32,000 bases of DNA, from contig JACQJH010000001.1 of the NCBI GenBank assembly GCA_016205145.1, forward strand, positions 60,001-92,000, given 5' to 3'. The stretch comes from Candidatus Iainarchaeum sp. Its GTDB lineage: Archaea; Iainarchaeota; Iainarchaeia; Iainarchaeales; JACQJH01. The notes below the pieces were generated by a model, which did no database searches, was not told where the DNA came from, and saw only the letters and a list, made by a program, of their open reading frames with translations. Made by a program: the position numbers and the translations under genes. This document shows positions 5,999 through 24,318 of this stretch, one piece after another (positions within the stretch are counted from its first letter, which is position 1; the number at the start of each line of letters is the position of its first letter).

Positions 5999-6613
5999 AT
6001 GGCGGTCAGGGGCAACAAGCCGGTTTTGTTTTCGATTGACCATGAACCTGCCCCGATTGAGGCCAGGTTGGCTGAATTTAAAGAAGCAATTAATGGAAAG
6101 AGTGTTCTTTTCATAGAACTGCCTGTTCAATTTGTCCGGCAACTGATTGAATTGCAGGAGTCTAATAGAATTTATATGCTGGGCCCGTCTTACCAGCTTC
6201 TTGTATTGGTTGCGCATAAGGCCGGTCTTATGATTGTCGGTTTGGATAATAATAAGTATCATGGCAGGTTTTGGCGCACAGTAGAAGATAACGCAAAGCC
6301 GGGGGGAACGGCAAACCTTGACAAAAAAAGTGACCTTTTTTATTTGAACCTTAACAAGCGCGAAAAGGATTGGTGCAGACAGCTTGCCGGAGTTGGCTCT
6401 AAAGCCATAGTTGTAATGAATCCGGTTCACGCGGCAGAGATTGCAAGGCGTCTGCAAATCCCGCAGGAAAACATATTGGGAACGTTGCGGGAAGAACCAC
6501 AAAGCAGGGCGTTGGCAGAAAAGCGGGCAGAGGGAATTGAAACCGAACGGTTGGACAGAAGACGCAGAAGAGCCGAACAGCGGAAACGCAGAGGGCCTAA
6601 CAGGGAACCGTGA
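5999..6613 (+). CDS. Hypothetical protein with an Arg-rich C-terminal tail
   Basis: 204 aa. The globular N-terminal ~165 aa is followed by EKRAEGIETERLDRRRRRAEQRKRRGPNREP. The stop lies 5 nt before the next gene's ATG. No family recognised. Confidence 0.6.
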   Translation: MAVRGNKPVLFSIDHEPAPIEARLAEFKEAINGKSVLFIELPVQFVRQLIELQESNRIYMLGPSYQLLVLVAHKAGLMIVGLDNNKYHGRFWRTVEDNAKPGGTANLDKKSDLFYLNLNKREKDWCRQLAGVGSKAIVVMNPVHAAEIARRLQIPQENILGTLREEPQSRALAEKRAEGIETERLDRRRRRAEQRKRRGPNREP

Positions 6614-6618
6614 TTTTT

Positions 6619-7125
6619 ATGGCGCTGAAAATCGTTTTGACCGGCTCGCCCGGCACCGGCAAGTCTTCAGTTGCAAAAATTCTCGCAAAAAAGCTTAACG
6701 CGCAGGTCGTCAACGACCTTGATTTCTGCAAAAAGAACCGCATCGGCGCGTTCGACCGCAAGGCAAAGGAACGGGTTGTGCCGGTCGAGCGGCTTGAACG
6801 CGCCCTGAAAAAATTCCTCGCCAAAACGCCGGCAAAAAATGCGAAAAGCGTTATTCTTGAAGGCCATTTGCTGTGTGAAATCAGCATTCCCTGCGACGCC
6901 GTTGTTGTGTTGCGCCTTGCCCCGGAAAAGCTTGAAAAGCGGCTTGCGAAACGCGGCTATCCTGAAGTGAAAGTTTTGGACAACGTTTTTTGCGAGGAAA
7001 CCGGCTACTGCAAGACGCGGGTTTTAAGAAACTATCCGGCAAATAAATTAGTTGAAATTGTTTCTTCGGATCCGGCGGAAAAAACCGCCAAAAAAATTTT
7101 GGATTGTCCTGCTTTGAGGGGTTGA
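6619..7125 (+). CDS. Fap7/AK6-type nucleoside-triphosphatase (putative adenylate kinase)
   Basis: ORF 6610 (GTG) trimmed to ATG 6619. P-loop GSPGTGKSS, and the EGH and LAKRGY motifs arranged as in archaeal Fap7 homologues. 168 aa. Confidence 0.8.
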   Translation: MALKIVLTGSPGTGKSSVAKILAKKLNAQVVNDLDFCKKNRIGAFDRKAKERVVPVERLERALKKFLAKTPAKNAKSVILEGHLLCEISIPCDAVVVLRLAPEKLEKRLAKRGYPEVKVLDNVFCEETGYCKTRVLRNYPANKLVEIVSSDPAEKTAKKILDCPALRG

Positions 7126-7131
7126 CTTTCT

Positions 7132-8355
7132 TTGAACGGGCGGCTCGCTTTTCTGGCTTTCGCGCTTGCCATGCTTTTTGCTTCAGTTTCAGCGGAAACG
7201 CTTTTCCAGAGGACCTTTGCAGAAATGGGCTATGACTCTGCGGTTGTCGACGGTCCGCAGACCGCGAAGTGCGTTGACTTTTCGGTTGTCTTCCCGCAGG
7301 AACTGCTTTCGGACAAAGAGGTTTTTGCGGTCGCGTCAATCAATGCCGAGTTTTTGCCGGTGCTGTCCGATGACGCCAATCTCAGCATTTCATTGAACGG
7401 CGAACAGGTCGCCGGCAACCAGTCCACAAAGCTTTATTGTAAAGGGGAGTGCTGGCTGAGGGTTGACCTGGACAAGGCAAAAATCCTTCCGGAGAACACC
7501 CTAAGTGTTTGCGTGCAAACCTCGGATTCGACGCCGAAAATAATAGTTTCAAACGATTCCATGGTCGGATTGTACAAGGCGCCGCGTTTTCTGGAATCGG
7601 ATTTTGTCAAGTCCACAAACAAGGCTTCCTATCTTCTTGGCGAAACCGCGACGGTTTCGATTTCATTGAAAAATTCCGGCAGCGAGCCAGCATTTGTCCA
7701 GATCCTGCACATCAAGCCGGCGGCGAAGCTTGCAAGGGAATACCGCACTTTCAACGTTCTTGAAGGTGAAAGCGAGTGGAAGGGCTTCATCAATCCGGGC
7801 GAACAGAAAACGGTTTCTTACACAATCAAGCCGGCTGACGCGCTGACAATGACTCTGCCGCCGGCAATAGCCTATTTCAAGAACGAGTTCGGAGACGAAC
7901 TTTCAATAGTGTCGAACCCGCCGACTTTCACTGTGCGCGAACCGGAAAAGAAACTGAGCGCTATAATAGTGCTGTCAAACCCGCGCGTTCAGCTCGGCGA
8001 AAACGCCAAGGCTGACGTCCTGGTCAAGAACAGCGGCAAGGACGCATTGTACGGCCTTTCATTTGAGCTTGTCCTGCCCGAAGGCGTTGAAGCGGTTTCC
8101 GGCGAAACGCAGTCTGAAATCGGTTTCCTGGCATCCGGCGAATCCGAAAAGCTTTCATTCAGGCTGGCTGCAAAAAAAAGCGGAACCTTCTCGCTGGGCT
8201 GTGCAATAACTTTTTCCGGCTCTCCGGAAAAAACCGAATGCGAGCCGAACTCGGTTGAGTTCTCGGAAGCCGGCCTGAATCCTGCAATCATTGTCGGCGC
8301 AGTCCTGCTTGCAATCGGCGCGGGCGTGTACTTTTACCTGAAACGCGAAGGCTAA
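7132..8355 (+). CDS. Cell-surface protein with CARDB/COG1361-like beta-sandwich repeats, an N-terminal signal peptide and a C-terminal TM anchor
   Basis: TTG start. Signal-like N-terminus MNGRLAFLAFALAMLFASVSAE. Repeats of the type SISLKNSGSEPAFVQI and VLVKNSGKDALYGLSFELVLPEGVE. C-terminus PAIIVGAVLLAIGAGVYFYLKREG. Confidence 0.7.
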   Translation: MNGRLAFLAFALAMLFASVSAETLFQRTFAEMGYDSAVVDGPQTAKCVDFSVVFPQELLSDKEVFAVASINAEFLPVLSDDANLSISLNGEQVAGNQSTKLYCKGECWLRVDLDKAKILPENTLSVCVQTSDSTPKIIVSNDSMVGLYKAPRFLESDFVKSTNKASYLLGETATVSISLKNSGSEPAFVQILHIKPAAKLAREYRTFNVLEGESEWKGFINPGEQKTVSYTIKPADALTMTLPPAIAYFKNEFGDELSIVSNPPTFTVREPEKKLSAIIVLSNPRVQLGENAKADVLVKNSGKDALYGLSFELVLPEGVEAVSGETQSEIGFLASGESEKLSFRLAAKKSGTFSLGCAITFSGSPEKTECEPNSVEFSEAGLNPAIIVGAVLLAIGAGVYFYLKREG

Positions 8356-8365
8356 ACCGGCATGC

Positions 8366-8394
8366 GTGGTGCTCCGCAATAGCGCGAGCACCAC
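8366..8394. terminator. 9-bp GC hairpin (GTGGTGCTC...GAGCACCAC) between convergent genes
   Basis: Read directly from the sequence. It lies in the 66-nt spacer between the stops at 8355 (+) and 8422 (-). No adjacent T-run, so its function is uncertain. Confidence 0.35.
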
Positions 8395-8421
8395 AAACCG
8401 CACCAGCCGGGCGTTCGGCTC

Positions 8422-11400
8422 TTACCAGTTCTTTAGTATCCTGTTTTCGGTTTCCTTTTTTTCCGCTTCGCCTTTTTCCCTTTTTTTTCTCACAGCAAAC
8501 AGCAGGGCCGCGGCAATTGCTATTGGTGCCAGGATTGCCGGAACGGGGAGGTTTTGCATTCCAGCAAAGCCGGTCGCATTCTGCCCGGAACCGGAATTCA
8601 GCAGGACAATCGCCTTGAGGTAGTGGCCTTTTTCGAATTCCTTTTTTGCAAGGACTATTGCTTCGGGGTTTTGCCTGCCGGAGTTCGCGTTTTCCGCGGC
8701 TGAATTGAACTGCACTGTCGCGTCTTCTTTCATCAATGCGAGCGCCTTGCCGGTTTCCTTTTCAATGGCGTCAAGCCTGTCAACGGAGCGGAGGAATTTC
8801 GCTTTCTGCTTTTCAAATAGTTCAACCGCGTCCCTGAAATCGCGTTTGCGGTTTTCATTGAAAATTCCTTCAAGCCCCGCTTTCAACACCTCGGAGTCCA
8901 AAGCTTCTAGTTCCAGTTCAAGCTGGCCAAGCCTTTCGGATGTCATCGGCGGAACGTATGCGATTGCAGCCAGCTCTTCCATTGTGACGCCGGACAAGGC
9001 GTTTGCGACCAAGGCGAATTTTTCGGGAACGGTTTTTTCAATTTTCTCCAGGAATTCCTTTGCCCTGGTTTCGTTTTCAAGCGACTTTTTTTCAACCGCC
9101 TTTTCCAGTGCAATGTTCAGGTCGAACAGGTTTTCCGCGAGGCTGTCCGTCAGTTTCTTCGCCCCCGCCAGGTTGCCTTTGAACGTTTCCCTTTCCGCGT
9201 CCGAGGCAATGGCAAGCGCGTTCTCCGCGTTCGCGTCAAGGGCATTCGCGCGCAGTTCCGGAAGCATTTTTTCAAGGCTTTCCTTGAGCAGCAATTGCTT
9301 TTCATGCAGCGCCTGGTTTAAGCCGTTGGGCGTTTCCGCCAGCCTTGCCTTTGCCGCATACAATGAACTGATGCCTTTTTCCGGCCCGGATTTTTTGGAT
9401 TCGCTTTCTGCAGCAAGCAAGAGTTGTTCCGCCCCGGAAATGCTTTGCCGTGCCTGGCCGGCTTCTTCCGCAAACCCGTTTTCTTCAAGTTCAGCGGCCG
9501 CCGCCTTTTTTTGGTCAATTTCTTTCTGCACGGCTTTTTTCATTTCGGCGAAAAGCATTGCGCTTTCGCTTTCCGCGTTTTCCTTTTGCTGCAATTCCGA
9601 GGCTTCTTTTGAAATGTCCGAAATTTTCTGGATGCGTTCCTTTGAGGAAAAGCCGGCCGCGGCGGCTTCCATTTCCTGCACTTCCGCAAGCAGTTCTTCC
9701 GCCTTGGCCGCAACAGCCGGGTTCTGTGACACAACAAGCTTTTCAAGCCGGTTTTCGGTTTCCGCCAGCAATGAACTCCAGTACGTCTGCTCGTCGAAGA
9801 CCGCGAACTCCGCATTGAAGGATTTTTCGCGCAAGGCCGGAAGCAACGGAATCCTGAATGAAATCATTGCGCCGGACTGGCTTGTTTCGATTTTTTTCCC
9901 TGTTTCGTCGGTAACGGCCAGGCCCGACACGTTTCCTGCCGCTGGAAACGGCGATTGCACAAAAACGTCTTCGACTTCGATCGGCAGGACGTTGGAAACT
10001 TTTATGAGCGCCTTGAGCCTTGACGAGTTCGCCTCAAACGCGGTTTTTTCCAGAACGCTTGTCTGCACGCTGACTGCGTCGCGCACAGTGAAATAAACCA
10101 TGACGTTTTCCTTTCCGGCAAGGTTTTCCATGTCAAAAGAAATTTTGTTGCCCTCCAGCCAGTGCTTAAGCTCCGCGTTGTTCCTTATGGCGAAAACGTT
10201 TGCGGCAGGCTTTGAAAAGTTTTCGCCGAGAAGATAAGTCTGCAACCTGAATTTCGGCGTTCCCGCGTCAGCCGACAAGGCTATTTTTTTCTCGACAAAC
10301 GCCTGTCCGTTGCCCGCAAAAAACGCCTGTGTTTCCTCTTCGGCCCTGACCGAGAGCACGGCAAAAAATTCTATTCTGGTTGTTCCCTGTGGAATGCTTT
10401 TGAACTCTGCCGCAAGGCTTTTGCCTTCCTGGCTTAATCCGGAAACGTTTGCGGGCAGGCTTTCAAAGCGCGCAAAGTTGGATGAAAAAGGGAAATCAAT
10501 TTCAACCGGCCGGTCAAAGCCGCCGAACGGGTTTGTGATTGCAAGCACAAACCTTGCCTCGGCCGGCTTTCCGGCTTCAACCGGCTGTTCCGCAAAAGCC
10601 TCAAGCGAAAACCTTTCGGCAAAAAATGCCCTGATGGCGTCTGCAAGGCTTTCCTCGGCATCAGACTTCAAGTCAGCGGCTTCATTTTCCAGTTCGTCCA
10701 GTTCAAGGGCGCCTTTTTCCGTCAGCTTCCCGTTTGAAATCTTTTGCCCGAGCCTTTGCAGTTCTTCCTCAAATGCCTGCGCGTTTTCCGGTGCTAACGC
10801 CTTTGGCGAGACCGAGGAAATGGCGAGCAGCGACGCAACCGTTTCTCTCGCCCCAGACAGGTTTGCGGCCGCGTTTCTTGCCTCATCCGAATCAGAAAGA
10901 GCCCGCAGCGCATCCTCTCTGAGGCTTTCGCACGCGTTCCTAACCATCAGCATCTGCTGTTCAGAGAATTCAACGCTTTCCAGAATTTCAAGCCTTGGCA
11001 GGAATCCTGACAGTTTTTCCCTGAGGCTTTTTTCCGAGAACGCCTTTTTCAGGAAGCCATGGCAATCCGAAAGCAGTTCCTCCTGCCCGGCCCGGAAAGC
11101 CGCAAAGTTTTTTTTCGCCGCCTCAAAGTCCTTGAAAGAACTGAACGCTTTCCCGCAAAACCTTATTTTTTCCGCACCGCTTTTTTCGGCCGCAAATTTT
11201 TTGGAATAGAACAATGCCCTTTCCTTGAGGCCGGCAATGCCTTCCGGCAAATTCTTTTCCTTTTCGAGGCTGTCAGAAATTTCCTCGGTTTTTCTTTCGC
11301 ACAGGAATTCCGCCTGCCTGCCGAAACTGTCTTCAAAAAACGCGATTTCGGTTTCAATCGACTTCAGGCTGTTGAGGGTTTCCTTGAGTTTGCCTGCGGT

Positions 11401-12606
11401 TCCGCCGAGCGAAAGCCTTTTCAGGCCTGATTTGAGTTCAAGCATTTCCTGTTTTGCGGCAATGATTTTGGGCAGGGCTTTTTCCGCGAGTTCCTTTGCC
11501 GAGGTTATTTCAAGGCTTCCGGAGGAAATGCCGTGCGTCTGCCTTGTCATGCCAAGTTCGGCCAGAAAACCGTTGTCTTCCGGCAGGCTGTCTGAAATGT
11601 TTTGCGACCTCTCCAAAAGTTTGTCCGCCATGCCGAGGTTTTCTTCCAGTATTTCGGAATTGCGCTGCACGAGTTCGGCTTTGTGGCTTTGCTCGGCTTT
11701 CAGGATCTGCGAGAATTTTTCCGCCGCCGAGTTCCGTTCGCCGAGAAAATCGTTGTAGGATTCGAAGAAACCGAACGCGGGAAAATTTTTCATGGTCTCG
11801 ATTGCCGACCTGAACTTCGCCTGCCTTGAAAGCGCGTCGATGACGTTGCCCACAAAATCCGAGATGATTGGCAGGTAAAGCCCGTTTCCGACGGCTTTTT
11901 TTTCGAGCGCGGAATCGTGCCTTCCGAGAAAATCGAGCAGGGAAAACTCGCGCTGTGCCACGGGCGAAAAGCCGTTTTGTTCCGCCAACGCGCTGAACTT
12001 TTGCGCCTGCAACGCAACAAATCCTGAAAATGACGAGTTGTTCGCTTTTCCTTCCTGCAGGTCGTTGGCGTTCTGGGCCAGCAAAACATGGTCCGCGAAA
12101 AGCGGCTCTTCCTTGGCAAGGCCGATGCCTTCGCCTTCAAGGAAAGATTTTTCCAGCAGGAGCACGGCTTCCGCTTTCTGCAACGCGTTTTGCGCCTCGT
12201 CAAAAGCCCTTTCAAGGTTGTGCGAAAAGCTGTTGATCTGGAATGAAAGGTCAGCCGGGTTGGAGGCATTGCGGCACGCCTCGTTCATTGCCTTCAGGTT
12301 TTTCTGGGCAAAGTTCAGGTAAAGCCAGCTCAAGGCGGCATGGTTTTTGTAGTAATAGAGTTCCTGGCTGATTTCCGGCGCAAAGTCCTGTTCGAAGCCG
12401 AAAAAGCTTTTTTCAACGCTTTCAAAGCACTTTTCCTGCGTCGAACATTCCGGCACCAGGGCAAAGCTTTTCGAAGTCAAATCGACGCACAGCTGCCTTT
12501 CCCCGATTGAAACCCTGTCATTGACGCAGCCGGCAAGGAAAAGCAATGCCGCAATGAAAAGTGCCGAAAAGCCTTTTCGCACCAAAACCACGAAAAATTT
12601 CGGCAA
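8422..12606 (-). CDS. Giant (1394 aa) coiled-coil surface protein with an N-terminal lipobox-type signal and a C-terminal TM anchor
   Basis: One uninterrupted ORF. N-terminus MPKFFVVLVRKGFSALFIAALLFLAGC (LAGC lipobox). Long A/E/K/L-rich helical stretches span aa ~115-685 and ~945-1345, flanking a beta-rich segment at aa ~685-945 (nt ~9772-10554). C-terminus LPVPAILAPIAIAAALLFAVRKKREKGE. The start codon is ambiguous (TTG 12606, GTG 12591 or GTG 12582). Confidence 0.85.
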   Translation of the reverse strand: MPKFFVVLVRKGFSALFIAALLFLAGCVNDRVSIGERQLCVDLTSKSFALVPECSTQEKCFESVEKSFFGFEQDFAPEISQELYYYKNHAALSWLYLNFAQKNLKAMNEACRNASNPADLSFQINSFSHNLERAFDEAQNALQKAEAVLLLEKSFLEGEGIGLAKEEPLFADHVLLAQNANDLQEGKANNSSFSGFVALQAQKFSALAEQNGFSPVAQREFSLLDFLGRHDSALEKKAVGNGLYLPIISDFVGNVIDALSRQAKFRSAIETMKNFPAFGFFESYNDFLGERNSAAEKFSQILKAEQSHKAELVQRNSEILEENLGMADKLLERSQNISDSLPEDNGFLAELGMTRQTHGISSGSLEITSAKELAEKALPKIIAAKQEMLELKSGLKRLSLGGTAGKLKETLNSLKSIETEIAFFEDSFGRQAEFLCERKTEEISDSLEKEKNLPEGIAGLKERALFYSKKFAAEKSGAEKIRFCGKAFSSFKDFEAAKKNFAAFRAGQEELLSDCHGFLKKAFSEKSLREKLSGFLPRLEILESVEFSEQQMLMVRNACESLREDALRALSDSDEARNAAANLSGARETVASLLAISSVSPKALAPENAQAFEEELQRLGQKISNGKLTEKGALELDELENEAADLKSDAEESLADAIRAFFAERFSLEAFAEQPVEAGKPAEARFVLAITNPFGGFDRPVEIDFPFSSNFARFESLPANVSGLSQEGKSLAAEFKSIPQGTTRIEFFAVLSVRAEEETQAFFAGNGQAFVEKKIALSADAGTPKFRLQTYLLGENFSKPAANVFAIRNNAELKHWLEGNKISFDMENLAGKENVMVYFTVRDAVSVQTSVLEKTAFEANSSRLKALIKVSNVLPIEVEDVFVQSPFPAAGNVSGLAVTDETGKKIETSQSGAMISFRIPLLPALREKSFNAEFAVFDEQTYWSSLLAETENRLEKLVVSQNPAVAAKAEELLAEVQEMEAAAAGFSSKERIQKISDISKEASELQQKENAESESAMLFAEMKKAVQKEIDQKKAAAAELEENGFAEEAGQARQSISGAEQLLLAAESESKKSGPEKGISSLYAAKARLAETPNGLNQALHEKQLLLKESLEKMLPELRANALDANAENALAIASDAERETFKGNLAGAKKLTDSLAENLFDLNIALEKAVEKKSLENETRAKEFLEKIEKTVPEKFALVANALSGVTMEELAAIAYVPPMTSERLGQLELELEALDSEVLKAGLEGIFNENRKRDFRDAVELFEKQKAKFLRSVDRLDAIEKETGKALALMKEDATVQFNSAAENANSGRQNPEAIVLAKKEFEKGHYLKAIVLLNSGSGQNATGFAGMQNLPVPAILAPIAIAAALLFAVRKKREKGEAEKKETENRILKNW

Positions 12607-12651: not shown

Positions 12652-12915
12652 TTAATATCTGGGCTGTTTGTAAACGTTTTTTCTGTGCCCTATTTTATGG
12701 ATTGACAATATGTTATTTGTTGGGAATTTTTCCAGAATCAGCCGGTAATGGCCTATTCTTATCTTGTAAAATCTGGTGCCCTTTACCTTTTCAAGGGCCA
12801 TGCCATCACTGCCCTCCATTTCGGAAATTTTTTTCAACGCTCTTTCGATAACCGGTTTTTCCAGTTTTAGAAGCTCTTTCTTGGCATCTTCATTCCAAAT
12901 TATTTTTGACGGCAT
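12652..12915 (-). CDS. relE: RelE/ParE-family type II toxin
   Basis: 87 aa. The motif ...FYKIRIGHYRLILEK...IHKIGHRKNVY is typical of RelE/ParE toxins. The ATG directly abuts the stop of the upstream small gene. Confidence 0.8.
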   Translation of the reverse strand: MPSKIIWNEDAKKELLKLEKPVIERALKKISEMEGSDGMALEKVKGTRFYKIRIGHYRLILEKFPTNNILSIHKIGHRKNVYKQPRY

Positions 12916-13170
12916 TCAAAGACCAAGCTCTTTTTTTATCTGTTCAGTGGTATAAAACCTGCCTTTCCGGATGTTTTTCCTGGACTTTTTTATATCCCTG
13001 ATTGTTTCTTCGCTGAGTTCGAGTTCAGCTTCCCCGTCCTCTTTTGCAATGATGACCAGCCTGCCCAGGACTTCCTCATAAGTTTCCCTCGGATGGTCTT
13101 TAAATGAATCAAGTTCCATTTTCATTTTCTTTGAAATCTGGATGGTTGTCGAATCACTCACTATAATCAC
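12916..13170 (-). CDS. Putative cognate antitoxin
   Basis: 84 aa. N-terminus TTIQISKKMKMELDSFKDHPRETYEEVLGRL resembles archaeal antitoxins. GTG start (13170 or 13161). A TATA-rich palindromic region lies upstream (13171-13200). Confidence 0.65.
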   Translation of the reverse strand: MIIVSDSTTIQISKKMKMELDSFKDHPRETYEEVLGRLVIIAKEDGEAELELSEETIRDIKKSRKNIRKGRFYTTEQIKKELGL

Positions 13171-13436
13171 CTATATTATATTATAGCACACTATATTTTA
13201 AATTACTGGATAACGTCGATTTCTTCGGCGCAGTTGGTTTTCGGTCCCCTGAAAGTGGCCTTTTCGAGTTTGTCCCAGGCATTCCCGTCTTTTTTCATTT
13301 AGCCGTCAAGTATTTCCTTTAGGCCTTGGAATTTAATCCTTTCTTTGTCTGCGGCAAACGCCGAATTCCGGCACAATTAATCTATTTATATAACTTTGAT
13401 CACATTCCTTGCAATCAGCTTGTTTTTGGTGTCATC

Positions 13437-13781
13437 ATGTCGTTCGGCTTTGGCAGGAAAGGAGTCATTTTTTCGACTGACGCTTTGTTCGGAGTCTTCT
13501 TTGTCGCGCTCATCGCGTCTGTAATGCTTTTGAACAACCAGTCCAATGCCTTCGAGAACAGGGTGTTTGAAAACCTGGGCAGGAAAACCTCTGACGCGGC
13601 AATGGTTGGCTTCCAGACCGGCCAAAACGTGTCTGCTCCGGCCTTCACGGCCTTGGGCTTGTCTGATTCCATGCCGGCGTTGAAGGGCTTCGGAAAATGC
13701 TCTTACTCTTATTCTTACGCACCGGCCGCAGACACTATCCAGTCAAATGTCGTAATCCAAAAGTTTTGCGCAAGCGAATGA
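13437..13781 (+). CDS. Archaeal type IV pilin-like protein (class III signal peptide)
   Basis: ORF 13326 trimmed to ATG 13437. N-terminus MSFGFGRKG/VIFSTDALFGVFFVALIASVMLL: a short basic leader ending in KG, then an FSxDA motif and a hydrophobic helix. Confidence 0.5.
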   Translation: MSFGFGRKGVIFSTDALFGVFFVALIASVMLLNNQSNAFENRVFENLGRKTSDAAMVGFQTGQNVSAPAFTALGLSDSMPALKGFGKCSYSYSYAPAADTIQSNVVIQKFCASE

Positions 13782-17909: not shown

Positions 17910-18671
17910 TTATCTTTTGTAGTTCCAATCTTTTCCCGAAAACTTTTCCTTTGCGATTTTTTCCGCCAAAGCCATTTCGTTTTCAAGCAGTCCGCCTTCT
18001 TCCAGTTCAACGCCGAAGTTTTCTGCAAAGCCTTTTTGCATTGCCTTTTGGCATTCCGCAAAGCTGACGTTTTTGCCAAGCTCTTTTTCCACTGACGTTA
18101 CCCTCTGCTTCACGTCTTCTATGAGCTTGCCTTTCAGCTTTTCGTTCGGCACTTTCAGCAGGGAAAACATTTTTTCCACGTCAACTTTCAGCAAAACCGT
18201 TCCGTGCTGTAAAATGACCCCGTTCCTGCGCGTCTGCGCATTCCCGGAAATCTTTTTCCCATTAACCGCGATGTCGTTCAATGGCACGAACCGGCAGTTC
18301 AGGCCCAGTCCAGCCAGGCCCAGGACAACGGCATTGCAGATTTTCGCGTAAGATTCAAGTATGTTCTGCGGCACAACGCCTTTTTCGGGCAGGGCAATGC
18401 TGTAAGTCAGTTCGTGCTCGTGGAATACCGCGCCCCCTCCCGTTACGCGCCTGACAACGCCAACGCCCTGTTTTTCGCACTGCGAAACGTCAACTTCTTC
18501 CGGCAGGCTCTGGAAATAGCCTATGCTTACTGCAGCCGGCTTCCAGGCATACAATCGCACGGTCGGAATTTTGTTTTCGGGCAGCAGGCGCATGATTGCT
18601 TCATCGGTGGCCATGTTGTGGAAAGCGGTGTTTTCATTGTCGAGGATAACTCTCCATTTTTTTCCGGACAT
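17910..18671 (-). CDS. lplA: Lipoate-protein ligase A, catalytic domain only
   Basis: ORF 18680 (GTG) trimmed to ATG 18671, one nt after the upstream stop and preceded by GGTGA. Motifs RRVTGGGAVFHEHELTYS and KISGNAQ. Confidence 0.88.
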   Translation of the reverse strand: MSGKKWRVILDNENTAFHNMATDEAIMRLLPENKIPTVRLYAWKPAAVSIGYFQSLPEEVDVSQCEKQGVGVVRRVTGGGAVFHEHELTYSIALPEKGVVPQNILESYAKICNAVVLGLAGLGLNCRFVPLNDIAVNGKKISGNAQTRRNGVILQHGTVLLKVDVEKMFSLLKVPNEKLKGKLIEDVKQRVTSVEKELGKNVSFAECQKAMQKGFAENFGVELEEGGLLENEMALAEKIAKEKFSGKDWNYKR

Positions 18672-18672
18672 T

Positions 18673-18969
18673 TTATTCACCGCCTTTCGCGTTTTCCGAA
18701 GCCATTTTTATGGCAAGCGCGATGCTTGCGGGGTCCGCGCCGAAAAACTGCAAATCGTTTTCTTTTACTGCCAGCGCGATAACGCTTTCCGCTTCCTCAA
18801 TGCTTTTGCCTTTCAGGTTTTTTTCAACCAGTTCAATCCCGTTTTCCGGGTGCAAAAAAAAGTCGCCCGTGATTTTCACGGAAATTATCCTGTTCGCAGC
18901 AGGCTCAAAATCCAGGAAGACTTTCAGCAGTTTGCCCTGCGGAACCTTGAAAACGGATTTGCCCTGCAC
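18673..18969 (-). CDS. lplB: Stand-alone LplA C-terminal accessory domain (LplB-like)
   Basis: 98 aa (KVPQGKLLKVFLDFE...ISVKITGDFFLHPE). It matches the C-terminal domain of single-chain LplA and sits immediately upstream of the catalytic-domain gene. Confidence 0.7.
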   Translation of the reverse strand: MQGKSVFKVPQGKLLKVFLDFEPAANRIISVKITGDFFLHPENGIELVEKNLKGKSIEEAESVIALAVKENDLQFFGADPASIALAIKMASENAKGGE

Positions 18970-18973
18970 AGCA

Positions 18974-20425
18974 TCACGCCTGTTTCCGCCATCTCAGCAC
19001 CGGCTCTTTTGCCGCCCTGACCGCGTCAAGCTTTTTCACCGGCAGGTTGTGGGGCGCGCTTTTAACGAAATCGGGTTTTTCCTGCGCGTCTCTTTTGATT
19101 TGCAGCATTGCCTCGACGAATTCGTCAAGGGTTTCCCTGCTTTCGGTTTCAGTCGGCTCGATCATGATTGCGCCGTGCACTATGAGGGGAAAGTAAATAG
19201 TGGGCGCGTGATAGCCCATGTCAAGAAGCATTTTCGCGACATCGCTTGTGGTTACGCCGTTCGGGAGTTTTTCGTCATTCAAAACGAATTCGTGCATGCA
19301 AATCCTGTCGTGTGGCAGGTTATACTCGTGTTTCAGTTTTTCCTTCAGATAGTTTGCGTTCAGCACGGCTGTTTCGCCTGCCCTGCGCATTCCTTTTGCG
19401 CCCAATGCGCGTATGTAGGTGTAGGCGCGCACCATCATCCCGAAGTTCCCGTAAAACGATTTCACCTTGCCAATGGATTTGGGCAGGTTGTGGTTCAAAT
19501 GGTGAACGCCGTTTTTTTCCTCGACCATCGGAGTGGGCAAAAATTCGACCAAATGCTTTTTCACTCCCACCGGCCCGCAGCCCGGCCCTCCTCCACCATG
19601 CGGAGTCGAAAAAGATTTGTGCAGGTTAAGGTGCATGACATCGAATCCGAGTTCGCCCGGCCTGCAGATTCCAAGCAATGCGTTCATGTTCGCGCCGTCC
19701 ATGTAGACGAGGCCGCCTTTTTCGTGCACGATTTCGCAAATCTTAACAATGTCTTTTTCGAACAGGCCGAGGGTGTTCGGGTTTGTAATCATTATGCCTG
19801 CAACTTCTTCGGACATTTTTTCTTTCAGCACGGAGAGGTCAATCATTCCTTCCGCATTCGATTTGATTTCTTCGGCAATGAAGCCGCATTGCGTCACTGA
19901 AGCCGGGTTTGTGCCGTGGCTTGAATCCGGAATCAGGATTTTCCTTCTCTTTGCGCCTTCGCCCCTGCTTTCATGGTATGCCCTTACAATGCGAATGCCC
20001 GTGAATTCGCCGCATGCCCCTGCAGGCGGCTGAAGTGAAAACCTTTCGAAACCGCAGATTTCGCACAGCATTTTTTCAAGTTCAAACATGAGTTTGAGCG
20101 CGCCCTGCGTCGTGATTTCCGGCTGCAATGGATGAAGTTGCGCGAAGCCCGGAAGCTTTGCCATTTCCTCGTTGACTTTCGGATTGTATTTCATTGTGCA
20201 GCTTCCCAACGGATAGAATCCGTTGTCGACCCCGTAATTGCGCCTGCTCAAACCCGTGTAATGCCTTACAACCTCGATTTCGCTCAGTTCCGGCAGTTCC
20301 GCAGGTTTTTCGCGCAGGAATTCTTTCGGAACAAGGCCTTCAACGCCAATGCTTTCATCCGCGGCTGGCTTGGGCAGTTCAACGCCTCTCTTGCCTTCCA
20401 CGCTTTTTTCAAAAACCGTTTTCAT
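18974..20425 (-). CDS. gcvPB: Glycine dehydrogenase (decarboxylating), subunit 2
   Basis: 483 aa. PLP-lysine region HLNLHKSFSTPHGGGGPG. 4-nt overlap with gcvPA. Confidence 0.95.
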   Translation of the reverse strand: MKTVFEKSVEGKRGVELPKPAADESIGVEGLVPKEFLREKPAELPELSEIEVVRHYTGLSRRNYGVDNGFYPLGSCTMKYNPKVNEEMAKLPGFAQLHPLQPEITTQGALKLMFELEKMLCEICGFERFSLQPPAGACGEFTGIRIVRAYHESRGEGAKRRKILIPDSSHGTNPASVTQCGFIAEEIKSNAEGMIDLSVLKEKMSEEVAGIMITNPNTLGLFEKDIVKICEIVHEKGGLVYMDGANMNALLGICRPGELGFDVMHLNLHKSFSTPHGGGGPGCGPVGVKKHLVEFLPTPMVEEKNGVHHLNHNLPKSIGKVKSFYGNFGMMVRAYTYIRALGAKGMRRAGETAVLNANYLKEKLKHEYNLPHDRICMHEFVLNDEKLPNGVTTSDVAKMLLDMGYHAPTIYFPLIVHGAIMIEPTETESRETLDEFVEAMLQIKRDAQEKPDFVKSAPHNLPVKKLDAVRAAKEPVLRWRKQA

Positions 20426-21768
20426 GCGAATTTCACTTCCGCCAGGGCCTTTGCCAGCGCGTCAATCTCCGCTTTGGAATTCATTTCGGTTGCGCACACA
20501 AGCAAATGGTTTTTGAATTCGGGATAATATTTTCCAAGGTTAATGCCCGCAAGAATGCCTTTCTTTTCCAGTTCAAACAATGACTTTTCCGCGTCCGGGC
20601 ATTTTACGACAAACTCGTTGAAGAACGGCGCCCTAAACGCCAATTCAAACCCGCGCACTCCGCCAATCTTCTTTGCCGCGTAATGCGCGTTTTTCAGATT
20701 CAGTTCTGCCAGTTCCTGCAGTCCTTTTTTGCCCAGCAATGACAGGTGAATCGTTGCCGCGAGAGCGCATAATGCCTGGTTCGTGCAGATGTTTGAAGTT
20801 GCCTTCTCCCTGCGGATGTGCTGTTCGCGGGCCTGCAAAGTGAGAATGAATCCCTCTTTTCCTTCGGTGTCAATGGTTTTCCCGCAGATCCTGCCGGGAA
20901 GCCTCCTGACAAATTCCATTTTGGTTGCAATCATGCCGACGTATGGCCCGCCGAAGCTCATCGGAATGCCGAAGCTCTGGCCTTCCCCGCAGACGATGTC
21001 AGCGTTGCATTCTCCCGGCGCCTTCAGCATGCCCAGTGAAACCGGTTCGGAAACGCTTACAGCGAACAACGCGCCTTTCGCGTGCACGATTTTTTCAATC
21101 GCCTTCAAATCCTCAACACAGCCGAAAAAATTCGGGTTCTGCACCAGGACAGTGGCAGTGTTTTCATTCACTTTTTTTTCAAGTTCAGAAATGCCTGTCG
21201 TTCCGCCTTCAAAGTCCGCTTCAACCAGTTTTATGTTGTGCGCGCCCGCATAGGTTTTCGCGATTGCAAGATGGTCGGGGTTGATTGCCTTGGAATAAAC
21301 AACTTCTTTGCGCCCGGTCTGGTAGACGCCCATCATCATCGCCTCTGCAAGTGCGGAACCCCCGTCGTAAAGCGATGCGTTCGCAACATCCATTCCGAAC
21401 AGTTCGCAGACCATTGTCTGGTATTCGAAGATTGCCTGCAGCATGCCCTGGCTTATTTCGGGCTGGTATGGCGTGTAAGCGGTGTAAAATTCGGCCCTTC
21501 CCGCAAGGTGCCAGACAGCGCTTGGAATGAAATGGTTGTAGCAACCCGCACCCAAAAAGCCTGAAACCTTTCCGATGTGATGGTTTTGTTCGGCCAACGA
21601 CCGGACATGCGAGACAAGGTCCTGTTCGGGCATGCCATCGGGCAGTTTGAGTTTTTCTTTGAGCAGTTTGTCTTGCGGAATGTCTTTGAACAGGCCTTCA
21701 ACAGAGGAAACGCCTGCAACGCGCAGCATTTCCTTTGCCTGCTTTTCCGTGTGCGGAACGAAGTCCAA
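20422..21768 (-). CDS. gcvPA: Glycine dehydrogenase (decarboxylating), subunit 1
   Basis: 448 aa. Typical P-protein N-terminal subunit sequence (YTPYQPEISQGMLQAIFEYQTMV). Confidence 0.95.
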   Translation of the reverse strand: MDFVPHTEKQAKEMLRVAGVSSVEGLFKDIPQDKLLKEKLKLPDGMPEQDLVSHVRSLAEQNHHIGKVSGFLGAGCYNHFIPSAVWHLAGRAEFYTAYTPYQPEISQGMLQAIFEYQTMVCELFGMDVANASLYDGGSALAEAMMMGVYQTGRKEVVYSKAINPDHLAIAKTYAGAHNIKLVEADFEGGTTGISELEKKVNENTATVLVQNPNFFGCVEDLKAIEKIVHAKGALFAVSVSEPVSLGMLKAPGECNADIVCGEGQSFGIPMSFGGPYVGMIATKMEFVRRLPGRICGKTIDTEGKEGFILTLQAREQHIRREKATSNICTNQALCALAATIHLSLLGKKGLQELAELNLKNAHYAAKKIGGVRGFELAFRAPFFNEFVVKCPDAEKSLFELEKKGILAGINLGKYYPEFKNHLLVCATEMNSKAEIDALAKALAEVKFA

Positions 21769-21830
21769 TGCAACCCCACCAAAAATAATTTAAAAAAATA
21801 AAATTGCCTTGGCAAAATTCTCTTCGCTGT

Positions 21831-22229
21831 TCAGTGCGCCTGCTCTGCCAAATATTTTTTGTACGCCTGCGCATCCATGAGCTTGCCCAATTCGCTTGCA
21901 TCCCTGACCTTGATTTTGAACAGCCAGCCTTCGCCGTAAGGGTCCCTGTTGATGATGCCGGAATCCTTTCCGGCTTTTTCGTTCACTTCGACGATTTCGC
22001 CTGAAACCGGCGCGAAAACGTCTGAAACGCTTTTCACGGATTCGACGACCATCGCTGTCTTGCCCTGCTCGACCTGCCTGCCTTTCTGCGGCAGTTCCGC
22101 GAAAACTATGTCTGTGAGGGAATGCTGCGCGAAATCGGTTATTCCGATAATGCCGAGGCTTCCCTCGACCTTAACCCACTCGTGGTCCTTGGTGTATTTC
22201 AATCCGTCCAAAACCTTGCTGTCCGACAC
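21831..22229 (-). CDS. gcvH: Glycine cleavage system H protein
   Basis: 132 aa. Lipoyl-lysine motif VESVKSVSD. GTG start preceded by GGTGAGG. Confidence 0.93.
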   Translation of the reverse strand: MSDSKVLDGLKYTKDHEWVKVEGSLGIIGITDFAQHSLTDIVFAELPQKGRQVEQGKTAMVVESVKSVSDVFAPVSGEIVEVNEKAGKDSGIINRDPYGEGWLFKIKVRDASELGKLMDAQAYKKYLAEQAH

Positions 22230-22248
22230 AACCTCACCTTTTTTTCGT

Positions 22249-23352
22249 TCAACTTTTCTTGTAAAAAGGTATTTTAACGGTTTTCGCAGGCAAAAACCTG
22301 TCCCTCACCTTGATCTTGAACTCCGAGCCTTCCGCAGCGAACTCTTCCGGCACGTAAGCCAGGCCGATGTTTTTCTTCAGTGTCGGTGAAAGCGTGCCGG
22401 ATGTGACAACGCCGATTTTTTCTTTTTCATCCTTGCCGTAGACTTCGTAGCCGTGCCTTGCGATTCCGCCGGAAACCTCAAAGCCTACAAGAACTTCGGC
22501 AAGGCCGTTTTCCTTCTGCGCAAGAAGCGCTTCCTTTCCGACAAAGCCCTTGTTGAATGAAACGAACTTTGAATAGACGTTCTGCAGGGGCGTATGCGCT
22601 TCGTCGATGTCGTTGCCGTAAAGCATGAAAGCGCATTCCAGCCGCAGGGTATCCCGGCAGCCGAGGCCGCATGGCTTCAGGCTGAATTCTTTTCCCGCCT
22701 GCCAGGCCGCGTTCCACATTTCTTGCGCCCTGTTCCAGGGAAAATAAACTTCAAATCCGTCTTCGCCCGTGTAGCCGGAGCGTGAAATGATTGAATCGAG
22801 GCCAGCAACCTTGCCTTCCGTGCCGTGGTAAAACTTTATTGCGTCGAGGTCAATGTCCGTGAGCTTTTTTGTCAATGCATTCGCGTTCGGCCCCTGCACG
22901 TCAAGCTTTGCCGTCTGCATTGAAATGTTTTCCAGTTTAACCTTTGCGTTCATTTCTTTTTTCTGCTTTTCAAACCAGGCGAAGTCTTTCGGCATTGTTC
23001 CCGCATTCACGACGAAAAAGTATTTCTGCTCGCCAAGCCTGTAAACCGTGAGGTCGTCGATGATGCCGCCCTGCTCGTTGCACATGACGGTTATTTTCAT
23101 CTGCCCAAGCTTTTGGCCGGCAATGTCCCTCGTCACAATGCGCTGGATGAGGGCTTCCGCGTCAGGGCCTTCCATCATGAATTCGCCCATGTGCGAAACA
23201 TCGAACAGGCCGACGTTGTTGCGCACGGCATTGTGCTCGTCCATCAGGGTTGAATAGTATACGGGCAGTTCCCACCCGCCGAATTCGACCATCACGCCGT
23301 TCAAGGCTTTGTGCTGTTCGAAAAAAGGAGTCTTCAAACCCATTAGTGTCAT
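22249..23352 (-). CDS. gcvT: Aminomethyltransferase (glycine cleavage T protein)
   Basis: 367 aa. N-terminus KTPFFEQHKALNGVMVEFGGWELPVYY and overall T-protein similarity. Confidence 0.95.
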   Translation of the reverse strand: MTLMGLKTPFFEQHKALNGVMVEFGGWELPVYYSTLMDEHNAVRNNVGLFDVSHMGEFMMEGPDAEALIQRIVTRDIAGQKLGQMKITVMCNEQGGIIDDLTVYRLGEQKYFFVVNAGTMPKDFAWFEKQKKEMNAKVKLENISMQTAKLDVQGPNANALTKKLTDIDLDAIKFYHGTEGKVAGLDSIISRSGYTGEDGFEVYFPWNRAQEMWNAAWQAGKEFSLKPCGLGCRDTLRLECAFMLYGNDIDEAHTPLQNVYSKFVSFNKGFVGKEALLAQKENGLAEVLVGFEVSGGIARHGYEVYGKDEKEKIGVVTSGTLSPTLKKNIGLAYVPEEFAAEGSEFKIKVRDRFLPAKTVKIPFYKKS

Positions 23353-23371
23353 AGCATACTGTCCGCAAAAT

Positions 23372-23382
23372 CATTAAAAATT
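23372..23382. promoter_or_regulatory. Single AT-rich TATA-like element (CATTAAAAATT) shared by the divergent gcvT and lipA operons
   Basis: The box centre lies about 25 nt from ATG 23352 (-) and about 27 nt from ATG 23404 (+). The whole spacer is only 51 nt. Confidence 0.4.
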
Positions 23383-23403
23383 GCTTTTCTCCCAAATAGC
23401 TGC

Positions 23404-24318
23404 ATGGAATTGCCGGTATTGCAGCAGAGGAAACCGGATTGGCTGAAGGTGAAACTGCCAAAGGGAACTGATTTGCACAAGTTTGCGCGTGTGCGGCAGA
23501 CTCTTGAACAAAACGGCTTGCACACGATCTGCGAGGAAGGCAGATGCCCGAACATCCACGAATGCTGGTCCGGCGGAACAGCAACTTTTCTTGCGATGGG
23601 TGACGTGTGCACGCGCGGCTGCAGGTTCTGCAGCGTGAAAACTGCTGCAAGGGGCATTGCATTGGACGAACGAGAGCCTGACAAAATCGCGCTCGCCGTA
23701 AAGGACTGGGGCCTGAAATGCGTTGTCATAACCTCTGTTGACAGGGACGATTTGCCGGACCAGGGCAGTGCGCACTTCGCAAAAATCATCCGCGCAGTGA
23801 AACAGGAATCGCCTGAAACCATTGTCGAAGTGCTCATTCCGGATTTCCGCGCGGACATCGATTGCCTGACACGAATCGTTGACGCAAAGCCCGATGTAAT
23901 TTCGCACAACATTGAAGTCGTGGAACGCCTGCAGTTCAAGGCGCGCGACGCAAGGGCAAACTACAGGAATTCGCTTGCGGTCCTGGAAAACGTGAAAAAG
24001 CTTGATTCGAAAATTTTCACAAAATCCTCGCTTATGGTTGGGCTGGGCGAAACGTTCGAGGAAATGCTCGGGGCAATGGATGATTTGCGGAATGCGCAGG
24101 TCGATTTTCTGACAATCGGCCAGTACTTGCAGCCGACGCGAAAGCAATTGGCGGTTGAGGAGTTCGTTCCGCCTGAACGGTTTGAACAATGGAAGCGCGT
24201 GGGCGAGCAAAAAGGCTTTTTGTACGTTGCGTCCGGTCCTTTCGTGCGCAGTTCCTACAAGGCAGGCGAACTTTTCATTGAAAGCGTCGTAAAAGCTGGG
24301 CGTGATGCGTTTGGCTGA
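23404..24318 (+). CDS. lipA: Lipoyl synthase
   Basis: 304 aa. Both cluster motifs are present: CEEGRCPNIHEC (Cx4Cx5C) and CTRGCRFC (Cx3Cx2C). Confidence 0.95.
   Translation: MELPVLQQRKPDWLKVKLPKGTDLHKFARVRQTLEQNGLHTICEEGRCPNIHECWSGGTATFLAMGDVCTRGCRFCSVKTAARGIALDEREPDKIALAVKDWGLKCVVITSVDRDDLPDQGSAHFAKIIRAVKQESPETIVEVLIPDFRADIDCLTRIVDAKPDVISHNIEVVERLQFKARDARANYRNSLAVLENVKKLDSKIFTKSSLMVGLGETFEEMLGAMDDLRNAQVDFLTIGQYLQPTRKQLAVEEFVPPERFEQWKRVGEQKGFLYVASGPFVRSSYKAGELFIESVVKAGRDAFG

Follow-up and report, generated by a model that had tools for sequence, protein, structure and literature searches.

The window analysed here, a stretch of 32,000 nt from Candidatus Iainarchaeum sp. (contig JACQJH010000001.1, positions 60,001 to 92,000), carries the gene of a 1394-aa protein, hereafter the giant, which is predicted to be anchored in the membrane at both ends and which belongs to a conserved family specific to the archaeal phylum Iainarchaeota (Diapherotrites). 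We propose that the giant forms a doubly tethered, modular arch that would serve as a scaffold or spacer of the cell envelope; taken as a whole, this statement has in our estimate a probability of roughly 45%, the architecture alone being much firmer. At 8422..12606 of the minus strand, the gene is an intact open reading frame (ORF) with a TTG start; in the NCBI model (P0001) the start lies five codons downstream, which gives 1389 aa, the rest being identical, and the public annotation of the identical protein, from a contig of 613 kb, reads 'MAG: hypothetical protein HY394_00365 [Candidatus Diapherotrites archaeon]'. Convergent to it lies the intact ORF of a 407-aa protein (7132..8355, plus strand), hereafter the neighbour, so that both reading frames stand as an initial annotation of this DNA had drawn them. 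The papers found for this analysis neither describe the envelope of the Iainarchaeota nor discuss a cultured member of this DPANN lineage, and what the present analysis adds is a conserved family, confined to this phylum and comprising about 200 sequence clusters, that had previously been recorded only as 'hypothetical protein'.

Two predicted membrane anchors

From its N-terminus to its C-terminus, the giant is divided into the following features.

12529..12606, minus strand: Sec-type signal peptide, aa 1-26, with the n-region MPKFFVVLVRKG and the h-region FSALFIAALLF, assigned from the translation, hydropathy and the N-termini of homologues
12526..12537, minus strand: lipobox L-A-G-C, aa 24-27, Cys27 being the predicted lipidated first mature residue
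10582..12525, minus strand: N-domain, aa 28-675, all-helical and family-defining, delimited from AlphaFold2 (AF2) models, conservation and the family profile
9793..10581, minus strand: tandem β-sandwich module, aa 676-938 (AF2 strands over aa 666-937, model residues 6-277), optional in the family
9022..9792, minus strand: C arm, aa 939-1195, an A/E/K/L-rich helical extension with AF2 helices of 16-54 aa, optional in the family
8584..9021, minus strand: C-terminal helical domain, aa 1196-1341, with a Y-x-P-P-x-[ST] motif at aa 1218-1223 and AF2 helices of up to 60 aa
8548..8583, minus strand: flexible linker, aa 1342-1353, where the AF2 predicted local distance difference test (pLDDT) is below 50 (model residues 681-696)
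8491..8547, minus strand: C-terminal transmembrane (TM) helix, aa 1354-1372, PVPAILAPIAIAAALLFAV, with a hydrophobicity peak of 2.31 and a nearly invariant P1361
8425..8490, minus strand: predicted basic cytoplasmic tail, aa 1373-1394, RKKREKGEAEKKETENRILKNW, 22 aa with a terminal aromatic residue, ending ...RILKNW

Membrane-grade hydrophobicity is reached in only two segments of the giant, aa 3-34 and aa 1351-1375. In the first of these, the sequence LAGC at aa 24-27, preceded by a basic n-region and a hydrophobic h-region, satisfies the published archaeal lipobox consensus [LVI][ASTVI][GAS]C at positions -3 to +1 (PMC12462473). Cys27 is invariant in 14 close and 36 diverse homologues of the giant. 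Furthermore, of 129 near-full-length representatives, all selected because they carry a C-terminal TM segment, 116 show [GAS]C after the h-region; in the remaining 13, the gene call is truncated at the N-terminus. With LAGC fitting the consensus and Cys27 invariant, the lipobox-type signal (LFLAGC) seen in the initial annotation is borne out, and Cys27 would be the lipidated residue. According to the same source, lipoproteins and the candidate lipidation enzyme AliA are prevalent in DPANN, AliA 'with some gaps' (PMC12462473); no AliA candidate (arCOG02177) lies within the 32-kb window, and no AliA check of the remaining genome was made.

At the other end, 130 of the 138 family representatives of at least 900 aa possess a hydrophobic segment at the C-terminus, and both anchors are also found in the complete giant genes of GTDB genomes (30 genes). 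The tails of the 129 near-full-length representatives have a mean length of 23 aa, a minimum of 17 and a net charge of +5, and 54 of them contain a Trp within the last eight residues, the overall Trp frequency being 0.38%. The conservation of this Trp-bearing basic tail across the family suggests a cytoplasmic binding partner. Thus, the C-terminal TM helix and basic tail proposed earlier are corroborated by the hydropathy peak and the 22-aa tail, whose basic character would suit a cytoplasmic location, and the placement of both termini at the membrane by the conservation of the anchors across about 200 family representatives; the C-terminal helix would then be retained in the membrane. The ectodomain between the anchors is acidic (isoelectric point 4.97) and contains 11 N-glycosylation sequons.

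A conserved cysteine-bearing N-domain

The two halves of the giant were modelled separately by AF2 (aa 28-690 and aa 661-1394). In the model of the first half, obtained with a 14-sequence alignment (pLDDT 81.2, predicted template modelling score (pTM) 0.57), the N-domain is made of about 25 helices of 12-49 aa plus a small hairpin, and the predicted helical stretch covers aa ~28-665. The initial annotation had placed a helix of about 570 aa in this region; its helical nature is retained, but not its continuity, as the model splits it into short helices that compose a self-contained domain. Foldseek searches with the N-domain against the PDB (best E 0.68) and BFVD (best E 0.079) returned nothing significant, and the helical fold of this domain is possibly new.

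The N-domain is the best-conserved part of the giant, and this conservation starts right at the lipid anchor. Among 36 diverse members, the sole invariant columns are C27, C40, C54, C60, C111, S293, C436, C484, C515 and C559, to which closer relatives add a K-E-E-P-L-F loop (aa 165-170) and the motifs S-W-L-Y-x-N, G-x-x-N-S and Y-x-P-P-I-S. Four of the cysteines (C40, C54, C60 and C111) had been singled out in the initial annotation and are indeed present and invariant in the 14 close as well as the 36 diverse homologues; four more (C436, C484, C515 and C559) had been overlooked inside what was then described as helix. In the AF2 model, these eight cysteines sit in eight different structural elements, which points to a stapling of the domain from within. 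Since nine invariant cysteines make an odd number, one of them is left unpaired, a count consistent with the lipidation of Cys27 and the engagement of the eight others in four disulfides, which are probably formed in the N-domain.

A phylum-restricted and modular family

No family in common emerged when the giant, 36 family members and 19 isolated β modules were scanned against Pfam, NCBIfam and PHROGs, and sequence searches of the PDB gave nothing consistent, in agreement with the initial annotation, in which the giant had not been recognised as a described family. As a word-indexed homology search under-sampled both proteins (14 clusters for the giant and a single match for the neighbour), an exhaustive profile search was used instead. 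With the N-domain profile, it identified 217 representatives (50% identity), of which 182 score E <= 1e-30, and all members with an organism name are assigned to 'Diapherotrites', 'Iainarchaeum' or 'archaeon'. A scan of GTDB species genomes gave 33 loci, nearly all from Candidatus Iainarchaeum and including one complete genome (AR10, CP010424). In every locus examined, the giant gene is single-copy and located amid housekeeping genes. The giant is a vertically inherited core gene of the Iainarchaeota (Diapherotrites) and specific to this phylum. Contigs L019, L023 and L028, which carry the giant gene and its synteny, are labelled Thaumarchaeota, Falkowbacteria and Chloroflexi and are probably mis-binned or mislabelled.

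Hidden Markov models (HMMs) for the four modules were scanned over all representatives, and architectures were counted in the 125 representatives that have both the N-domain and the C-terminal domain.

72 of 125 representatives: β module and C arm, as in the window
22 of 125 representatives: β module, no C arm
28 of 125 representatives: little or no β module, no C arm
3 of 125 representatives: other module combinations

In 30 of these 125 representatives the β module is matched by its HMM partially or not at all, and the C arm is missing from 50; the C-terminal helical domain is kept in all full-length homologues of the giant. The N-domain measures 626 +/- 44 aa and the stretch that separates it from the C-terminal domain 4 to 604 aa, the two lengths being correlated at only r = 0.20; the lower extreme is a 795-aa member (P0072) in which four residues join the two domains. 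The family therefore consists of an invariant N-domain and a C-terminal helical domain with two optional inserts between them. One member (L031:619-3159, the same as P0014) stops early inside the β module, at 846 or 820 aa, and lacks a TM helix; a pseudogene, a frameshift or a faulty assembly could account for this.

In the AF2 model of aa 661-1394 (pLDDT 82.1), a β-rich part is succeeded by helices of 6-60 residues, by a linker of about 15 residues that is disordered, and by a terminal helix that covers both the TM segment and the tail. The β-rich module that had been noticed mid-protein (aa ~685-945) is placed by this model at aa ~666-937, and the further 400 aa or so of helix at aa ~939-1341, close to the original description in both cases. 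Internal duplication of the two sandwiches of the module (B1 and B2) receives a weak hhalign signal (probability 53%). Likewise, a weak similarity between the C arm and the C-terminal domain (hhalign probability 43%) hints that the former derives from the latter. PDB matches of aa 940-1200, in searches with the single sequence and with the full-family profile, are designed helical bundles and reflect composition only.

A candidate scaffold just outside the membrane

Our proposal is that the giant would be exported via Sec, that its signal peptide would be cut at the lipobox and Cys27 lipid-modified, and that the C-terminal TM helix would hold the other end in the membrane, with the 22-aa basic tail in the cytoplasm. 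Owing to these two anchors, about 1325 residues would be extracellular and form a closed loop, or arch, over the membrane, in the order lipid anchor, N-domain, optional β and helical cassettes, C-terminal domain, flexible linker and TM helix. The core of the arch would be formed by the 650-aa N-domain, probably with its four disulfides, and by the 150-aa C-terminal helical domain, and its reach would be set by the optional inserts, namely the tandem β-sandwich and the 250-aa helical-bundle extension. Such a protein would have a structural role, as scaffold or spacer, in the zone immediately beyond the membrane, with the KEEPLF and G-x-x-N-S loops and the cytoplasmic tail motif binding partners, among which the convergent 407-aa immunoglobulin (Ig)-domain membrane protein is a candidate. 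A scaffold role is favoured because the giant is encoded by a single-copy, vertically inherited core gene, because its best-conserved part starts right at the lipid anchor and because the protein has no enzymatic or signalling domain.

Several points weigh against this proposal. Since the N-domain has no structural neighbour, the word scaffold is drawn from the architecture and not from experiment or homology. The lipidation, the disulfides and the retention of the TM helix are predictions, and the halves of the giant come from separate models. The conserved polar loop residues E166, E167, S293 and K408 of the N-domain could equally mark a binding or a catalytic site. Besides, the sequons are not significantly enriched (11 versus 7.8 +/- 2.5 in shuffles), and a literature search for the Iainarchaeota envelope or the giant family found no description.

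The scaffold proposal can be extended to a wider picture in which the family would be a phylum-defining extracellular membrane skeleton of closed arches, its reach tuned by cassettes and its ...hxxW tail coupled to a cytoplasmic division or cytoskeletal partner, and would build with the 407-aa protein a minimal envelope replacing or underpinning an S-layer, the N-domain being a new fold; we regard this picture as distinctly unlikely. The giant combines an unusual pair of anchors, a lipobox and a C-terminal TM helix, with an N-domain without structural neighbour and with cassette-like optional modules. The value of these results is descriptive and not mechanistic, and no long-standing question is directly testable from sequence alone. 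The giant nonetheless offers a concrete, abundant-looking target for metaproteomics, cryo-electron tomography labelling and structural work, and it lends itself naturally as a substrate for testing, in DPANN, the archaeal lipoprotein pathway that was discovered recently.

The convergent neighbour and a possible S-layer reading

The neighbour and the gene that precedes it comprise the following features.

6610..7125, plus strand: Fap7-like AAA_18 kinase gene (Pfam AAA_18, E 1.5e-18), ending 6 nt before the 407-aa gene
7132..7194, plus strand: signal peptide of the neighbour, aa 1-21, with a signal-peptidase-I-type end (SVSA, then ETLFQRTF after the predicted cut) and hydrophobic over aa 1-25
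7195..7596, plus strand: N-terminal ectodomain, aa 22-155, without Pfam match, C47 and C127 being invariant in 24 orthologues
7615..8193, plus strand: two Ig-like domains, aa 162-354, BatD/DUF11-like at aa 162-268 and DUF11/CARDB-like at aa 281-354
8284..8352, plus strand: C-terminal TM helix and 4-aa tail KREG, aa 385-407, hydrophobic over aa 377-404 with a peak of 2.3

The 24 orthologues of the neighbour have in common the mature N-terminus E-T-V-F-E-R-S-F, the cysteines C47, C127, C357 and C370, and the C-terminal TM helix, which is followed by tails of mostly 2-5 aa. Three Pfam families match above their gathering cut-offs, BatD (E 2.3e-7, 31.8 bits versus 24.1), DUF11 (E 7.2e-6, 26.8 versus 24.6) and CARDB (E 5.3e-5, 23.8 versus 22.7). 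Together with the hydrophobic N-terminal signal, these matches agree with the signal peptide and CARDB-like domains first described. The neighbour had also been credited with the same type of C-terminal anchor as the giant; this holds for the TM helix but not for the tail, whose four residues are far fewer than those of the giant. By its Ig-like domains, signal peptide and C-terminal anchor, the neighbour resembles CARDB/DUF11/BatD surface proteins, from which it differs by a 135-aa N-terminal domain outside any Pfam family, and the only orthologues recognised lie beside the giant in loci of the Iainarchaeota.

An orthologue of the neighbour is convergent to the giant in 24 of the 27 loci with enough flanking sequence, and the pair noticed in the initial annotation is thus conserved; in L010, L027 and L031 the two genes are not adjacent. 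Stop-to-stop gaps, measured for 23 orthologues (L038 was left out), range from -9 to +489 nt in 17 loci, and the six others hold inserts of 0.7-7 kb, which in five cases encode extra secreted proteins. These inserted genes (L014:13441-15489, L019:5305-7842 and 8496-12218, L024:13125-15671 and L026:13650-15122) specify secreted proteins of 490-1240 aa sharing the C-terminal end [VI]P[ED]xxLxxxP[LM]LL-hydrophobic-KK(R). This end, to which none of the NCBIfam models for sorting signals corresponds, may be a lineage-specific sorting signal.

A surface-protein gene maintained beside the giant gene recalls archaeal S-layers, in which SlaB displays β-sandwiches, then a helical region, then a TM segment at the C-terminus, and in which slaA and slaB are adjacent genes (PMC5744192). 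Like SlaB and tetrabrachion, the giant is a large archaeal envelope protein in which a signal peptide, β-sandwich domains, a helical region and a C-terminal TM anchor succeed each other, and its gene adjoins that of another surface protein. It could therefore be an S-layer stalk or anchor of the same kind, with its C-terminal half as the pillar and the 407-aa protein or another one as the canopy, an idea that the tail-to-tail conservation of the two genes and the extra secreted proteins at the same spot in five loci would fit. However, the giant departs from SlaB and tetrabrachion in that it shows no long trimeric or tetrameric coiled-coil periodicity, its helices not exceeding 60 aa, in that a 650-aa lipid-anchored and, as predicted, cysteine-stapled N-domain is added as the conserved core, and in that there is a second, N-terminal anchor. 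Neither the PDB sequence searches nor the 50 Foldseek matches listed contain SlaB or tetrabrachion. As for the canopy, the 407-aa protein is small and has its own TM anchor, and its gene is convergent to that of the giant and not co-transcribed with it.

The genomic context of the neighbour points elsewhere as well. The Fap7-like kinase gene lies immediately upstream of the 407-like gene in every locus having one, the two genes overlap in L003 and L006, and they look like a phylum-wide conserved operon of seemingly unrelated functions. Moreover, the unrelated NFACT (14 of 19 loci) and Tyw1 (11 of 19) genes are also syntenic with the giant, which weakens synteny as evidence of a function shared by the giant and the neighbour. 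Where the giant has neither β module nor C arm, the orthologues of the neighbour remain at 402-435 aa, and the β module is thereby excluded as an obligatory docking site. The mirror-tree correlation between the giant N-domain and the 407-aa protein is high (r = 0.82-0.92), with a partial r of 0.75 when AAA_18 is controlled for but only 0.43 when NFACT is; as the raw NFACT correlations are just as high (0.86 and 0.93), we rejected the mirror-tree as evidence of specific co-evolution. The pair is thus a conserved genomic feature whose functional coupling is possible, and the S-layer reading of the giant is, in our judgement, rather unlikely.

Predicted helical bundles and the coiled-coil hairpin

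The giant had initially been read as an antiparallel hairpin, in which N-terminal (~570 aa) and C-terminal (~400 aa) coiled-coil helices would pair into a stalk and present a distal β-sandwich as an adhesin tip. In the window protein both ends are indeed predicted at the membrane with the β module between them, and tandem β-sandwiches are common binding modules, FnBPA, SdrE and integrin domains being among the Foldseek matches. Periodicity was tested by a register scan of 42-residue windows against the 99th percentile of shuffles, with tropomyosin as comparison. Heptad windows above the cut-off amount to 3.4% in the giant versus 66% in tropomyosin, and hendecad windows to 2.6-4.1% in the giant, which is near background. 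Furthermore, the longest AF2 helix anywhere in the giant is 60 aa, both supposed arms are broken into many helices, and the N-domain folds alone in its model. According to these models, the giant is rich in helical bundles and is not a long coiled coil, and the coiled-coil wording has to be abandoned.

Family comparison leads in the same direction. Paired arms should co-vary in length, yet the C arm and the would-be tip are lost from members whose N-domain is unchanged, which leaves the hairpin unsupported. In addition, the eight invariant cysteines, located in separate helices of the N-domain, point to stapling within this domain, and the highest conservation is found there, at the lipid anchor, and not at the supposed tip. 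We therefore consider a hairpin stalk very unlikely, and a tempting annotation as 'coiled-coil hairpin adhesin' is hereby corrected. The likeness to SMC/Rad50 hairpins is confined to a superficial helical-globular-helical layout; unlike these, the giant is predicted to be extracellular, has broken helices without heptads and unequal, independently varying arms, and lacks ATPase heads.

The C-terminal anchor and the β module compared

The C-terminus of the giant might alternatively be a cleavable signal of the archaeosortase (PGF-CTERM) type, in which case the mature protein would be held by lipid at both ends or released. A Pro-rich edge, a hydrophobic helix and basic residues do resemble sorting signals, the giant has sub-threshold matches to PEP-CTERM (E 0.084, 13.8 bits versus 16) and LPXTG, and the inserted genes of related loci share a C-terminal motif of their own. 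However, when the C-terminal 60 aa of the two proteins and the inserted neighbours were scanned, every sorting-signal model stayed below its cut-off, the best match of the 407-aa protein being LPxTATN at 19.5 bits, below the cut-off of 32. Typical sorting signals end a few basic residues past the helix, and the long tails of the giant family, with their conserved terminal aromatic motif, would be senseless in a discarded peptide, which makes cleavage highly improbable.

With a C-terminal TM helix retained as we propose, the giant can be compared with the archaeal lipobox lipoproteins (AliA/AliB substrates, Haloferax volcanii), with which it shares the [LVI][ASTVI][GAS]C end of the signal and the invariant Cys, and from which it is distinguished by the additional TM helix and cytoplasmic tail. 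To our knowledge, the lipoproteins described so far are held by lipid alone, and we know of no earlier description of a protein in which a lipobox anchor occurs together with both a TM helix at the C-terminus and a conserved cytoplasmic tail.

Concerning the β module, the top Foldseek matches of the C-terminal half are chains of eukaryotic oligosaccharyltransferase (OST) complexes, 8pn9_E (E 4.5e-8), 6s7o_E, 6ezn_A, 6c26_1, 7oci_A and 8agb_E, which we take to be ribophorin I / Ost1 by their length and label. Their E values run from 4.5e-8 to 2e-5 with a probability of 1.0, yet their template modelling scores (TM-scores) are only 0.12-0.19. Next come mu-homology domains (MHDs; AP2 mu2), LTA4H/ERAP1 N-domains, integrin calf domains and the staphylococcal FnBPA and SdrE, the TM-scores across all these matches being 0.1-0.3. 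The module may resemble Ost1/ribophorin I and MHDs at the level of a tandem β-sandwich fold (Foldseek E 4.5e-8 to 1e-3), and differs from them by the low TM-scores, the lack of profile similarity, its position between the helical domains of a predicted surface protein and its dispensability. Indeed, the Ribophorin_I Pfam model has no match at E <= 1 in 19 β modules nor at E <= 0.1 in 36 full-length members, and a profile of the module matched no chain among PDB sequences. On these grounds, 'Ost1/MHD tandem β-sandwich' is used as a fold-class label and no membership is claimed. An Adap_comp_sub Pfam match (E 7e-4) occurs in only one of the 19 members, the window protein, and was rejected. That the giant should be an Ost1/ribophorin-I-like accessory, its β-sandwich holding nascent polypeptides or glycans near the translocon or AglB, is suggested by the best matches but is barely credible when generic β-sandwiches such as integrins, FnBPA, ERAP1 and AP2 mu2 score in the same list, the module is absent or partial in part of the family and no glycosylation genes lie in the neighbourhood.

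The intergenic spacer and the rest of the window

The two convergent genes are separated by a short spacer.

8356..8421, no strand: inter-stop spacer of 66 nt with a strong stem-loop (minimum free energy -34.6 kcal/mol, z = -4.3 versus shuffles)

This stem-loop is a possible bidirectional terminator; it is not a conserved element, since the gap in many related loci is of -9 to +20 nt. A ParE-family toxin gene and a DUF7557 gene (12652-13170, minus strand) lie immediately upstream of the giant gene. As this pair is present in only one of 19 related loci, it looks like a recent toxin-antitoxin insertion in an otherwise conserved neighbourhood.

Elsewhere the window has the character of an ordinary archaeal housekeeping region, with genes for a Hel308-type helicase, NAC, the Fap7-like AAA_18 kinase, Tyw1 and NFACT, as well as for lipoate ligase, the glycine cleavage system, PGK, GAPDH and PGM. 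A 151-aa ORF (13326-13781, plus strand) without Pfam match has a segment, GRKG followed by VIFSTDALFGVFFVALIASVMLL, that resembles an archaeal class III (prepilin-type) signal. Finally, the genes for lipoate-protein ligase, the glycine cleavage P1, P2 and T proteins and dihydrolipoamide dehydrogenase are clustered at 17910-25726 and constitute a glycine cleavage system that is fairly complete for a DPANN genome.

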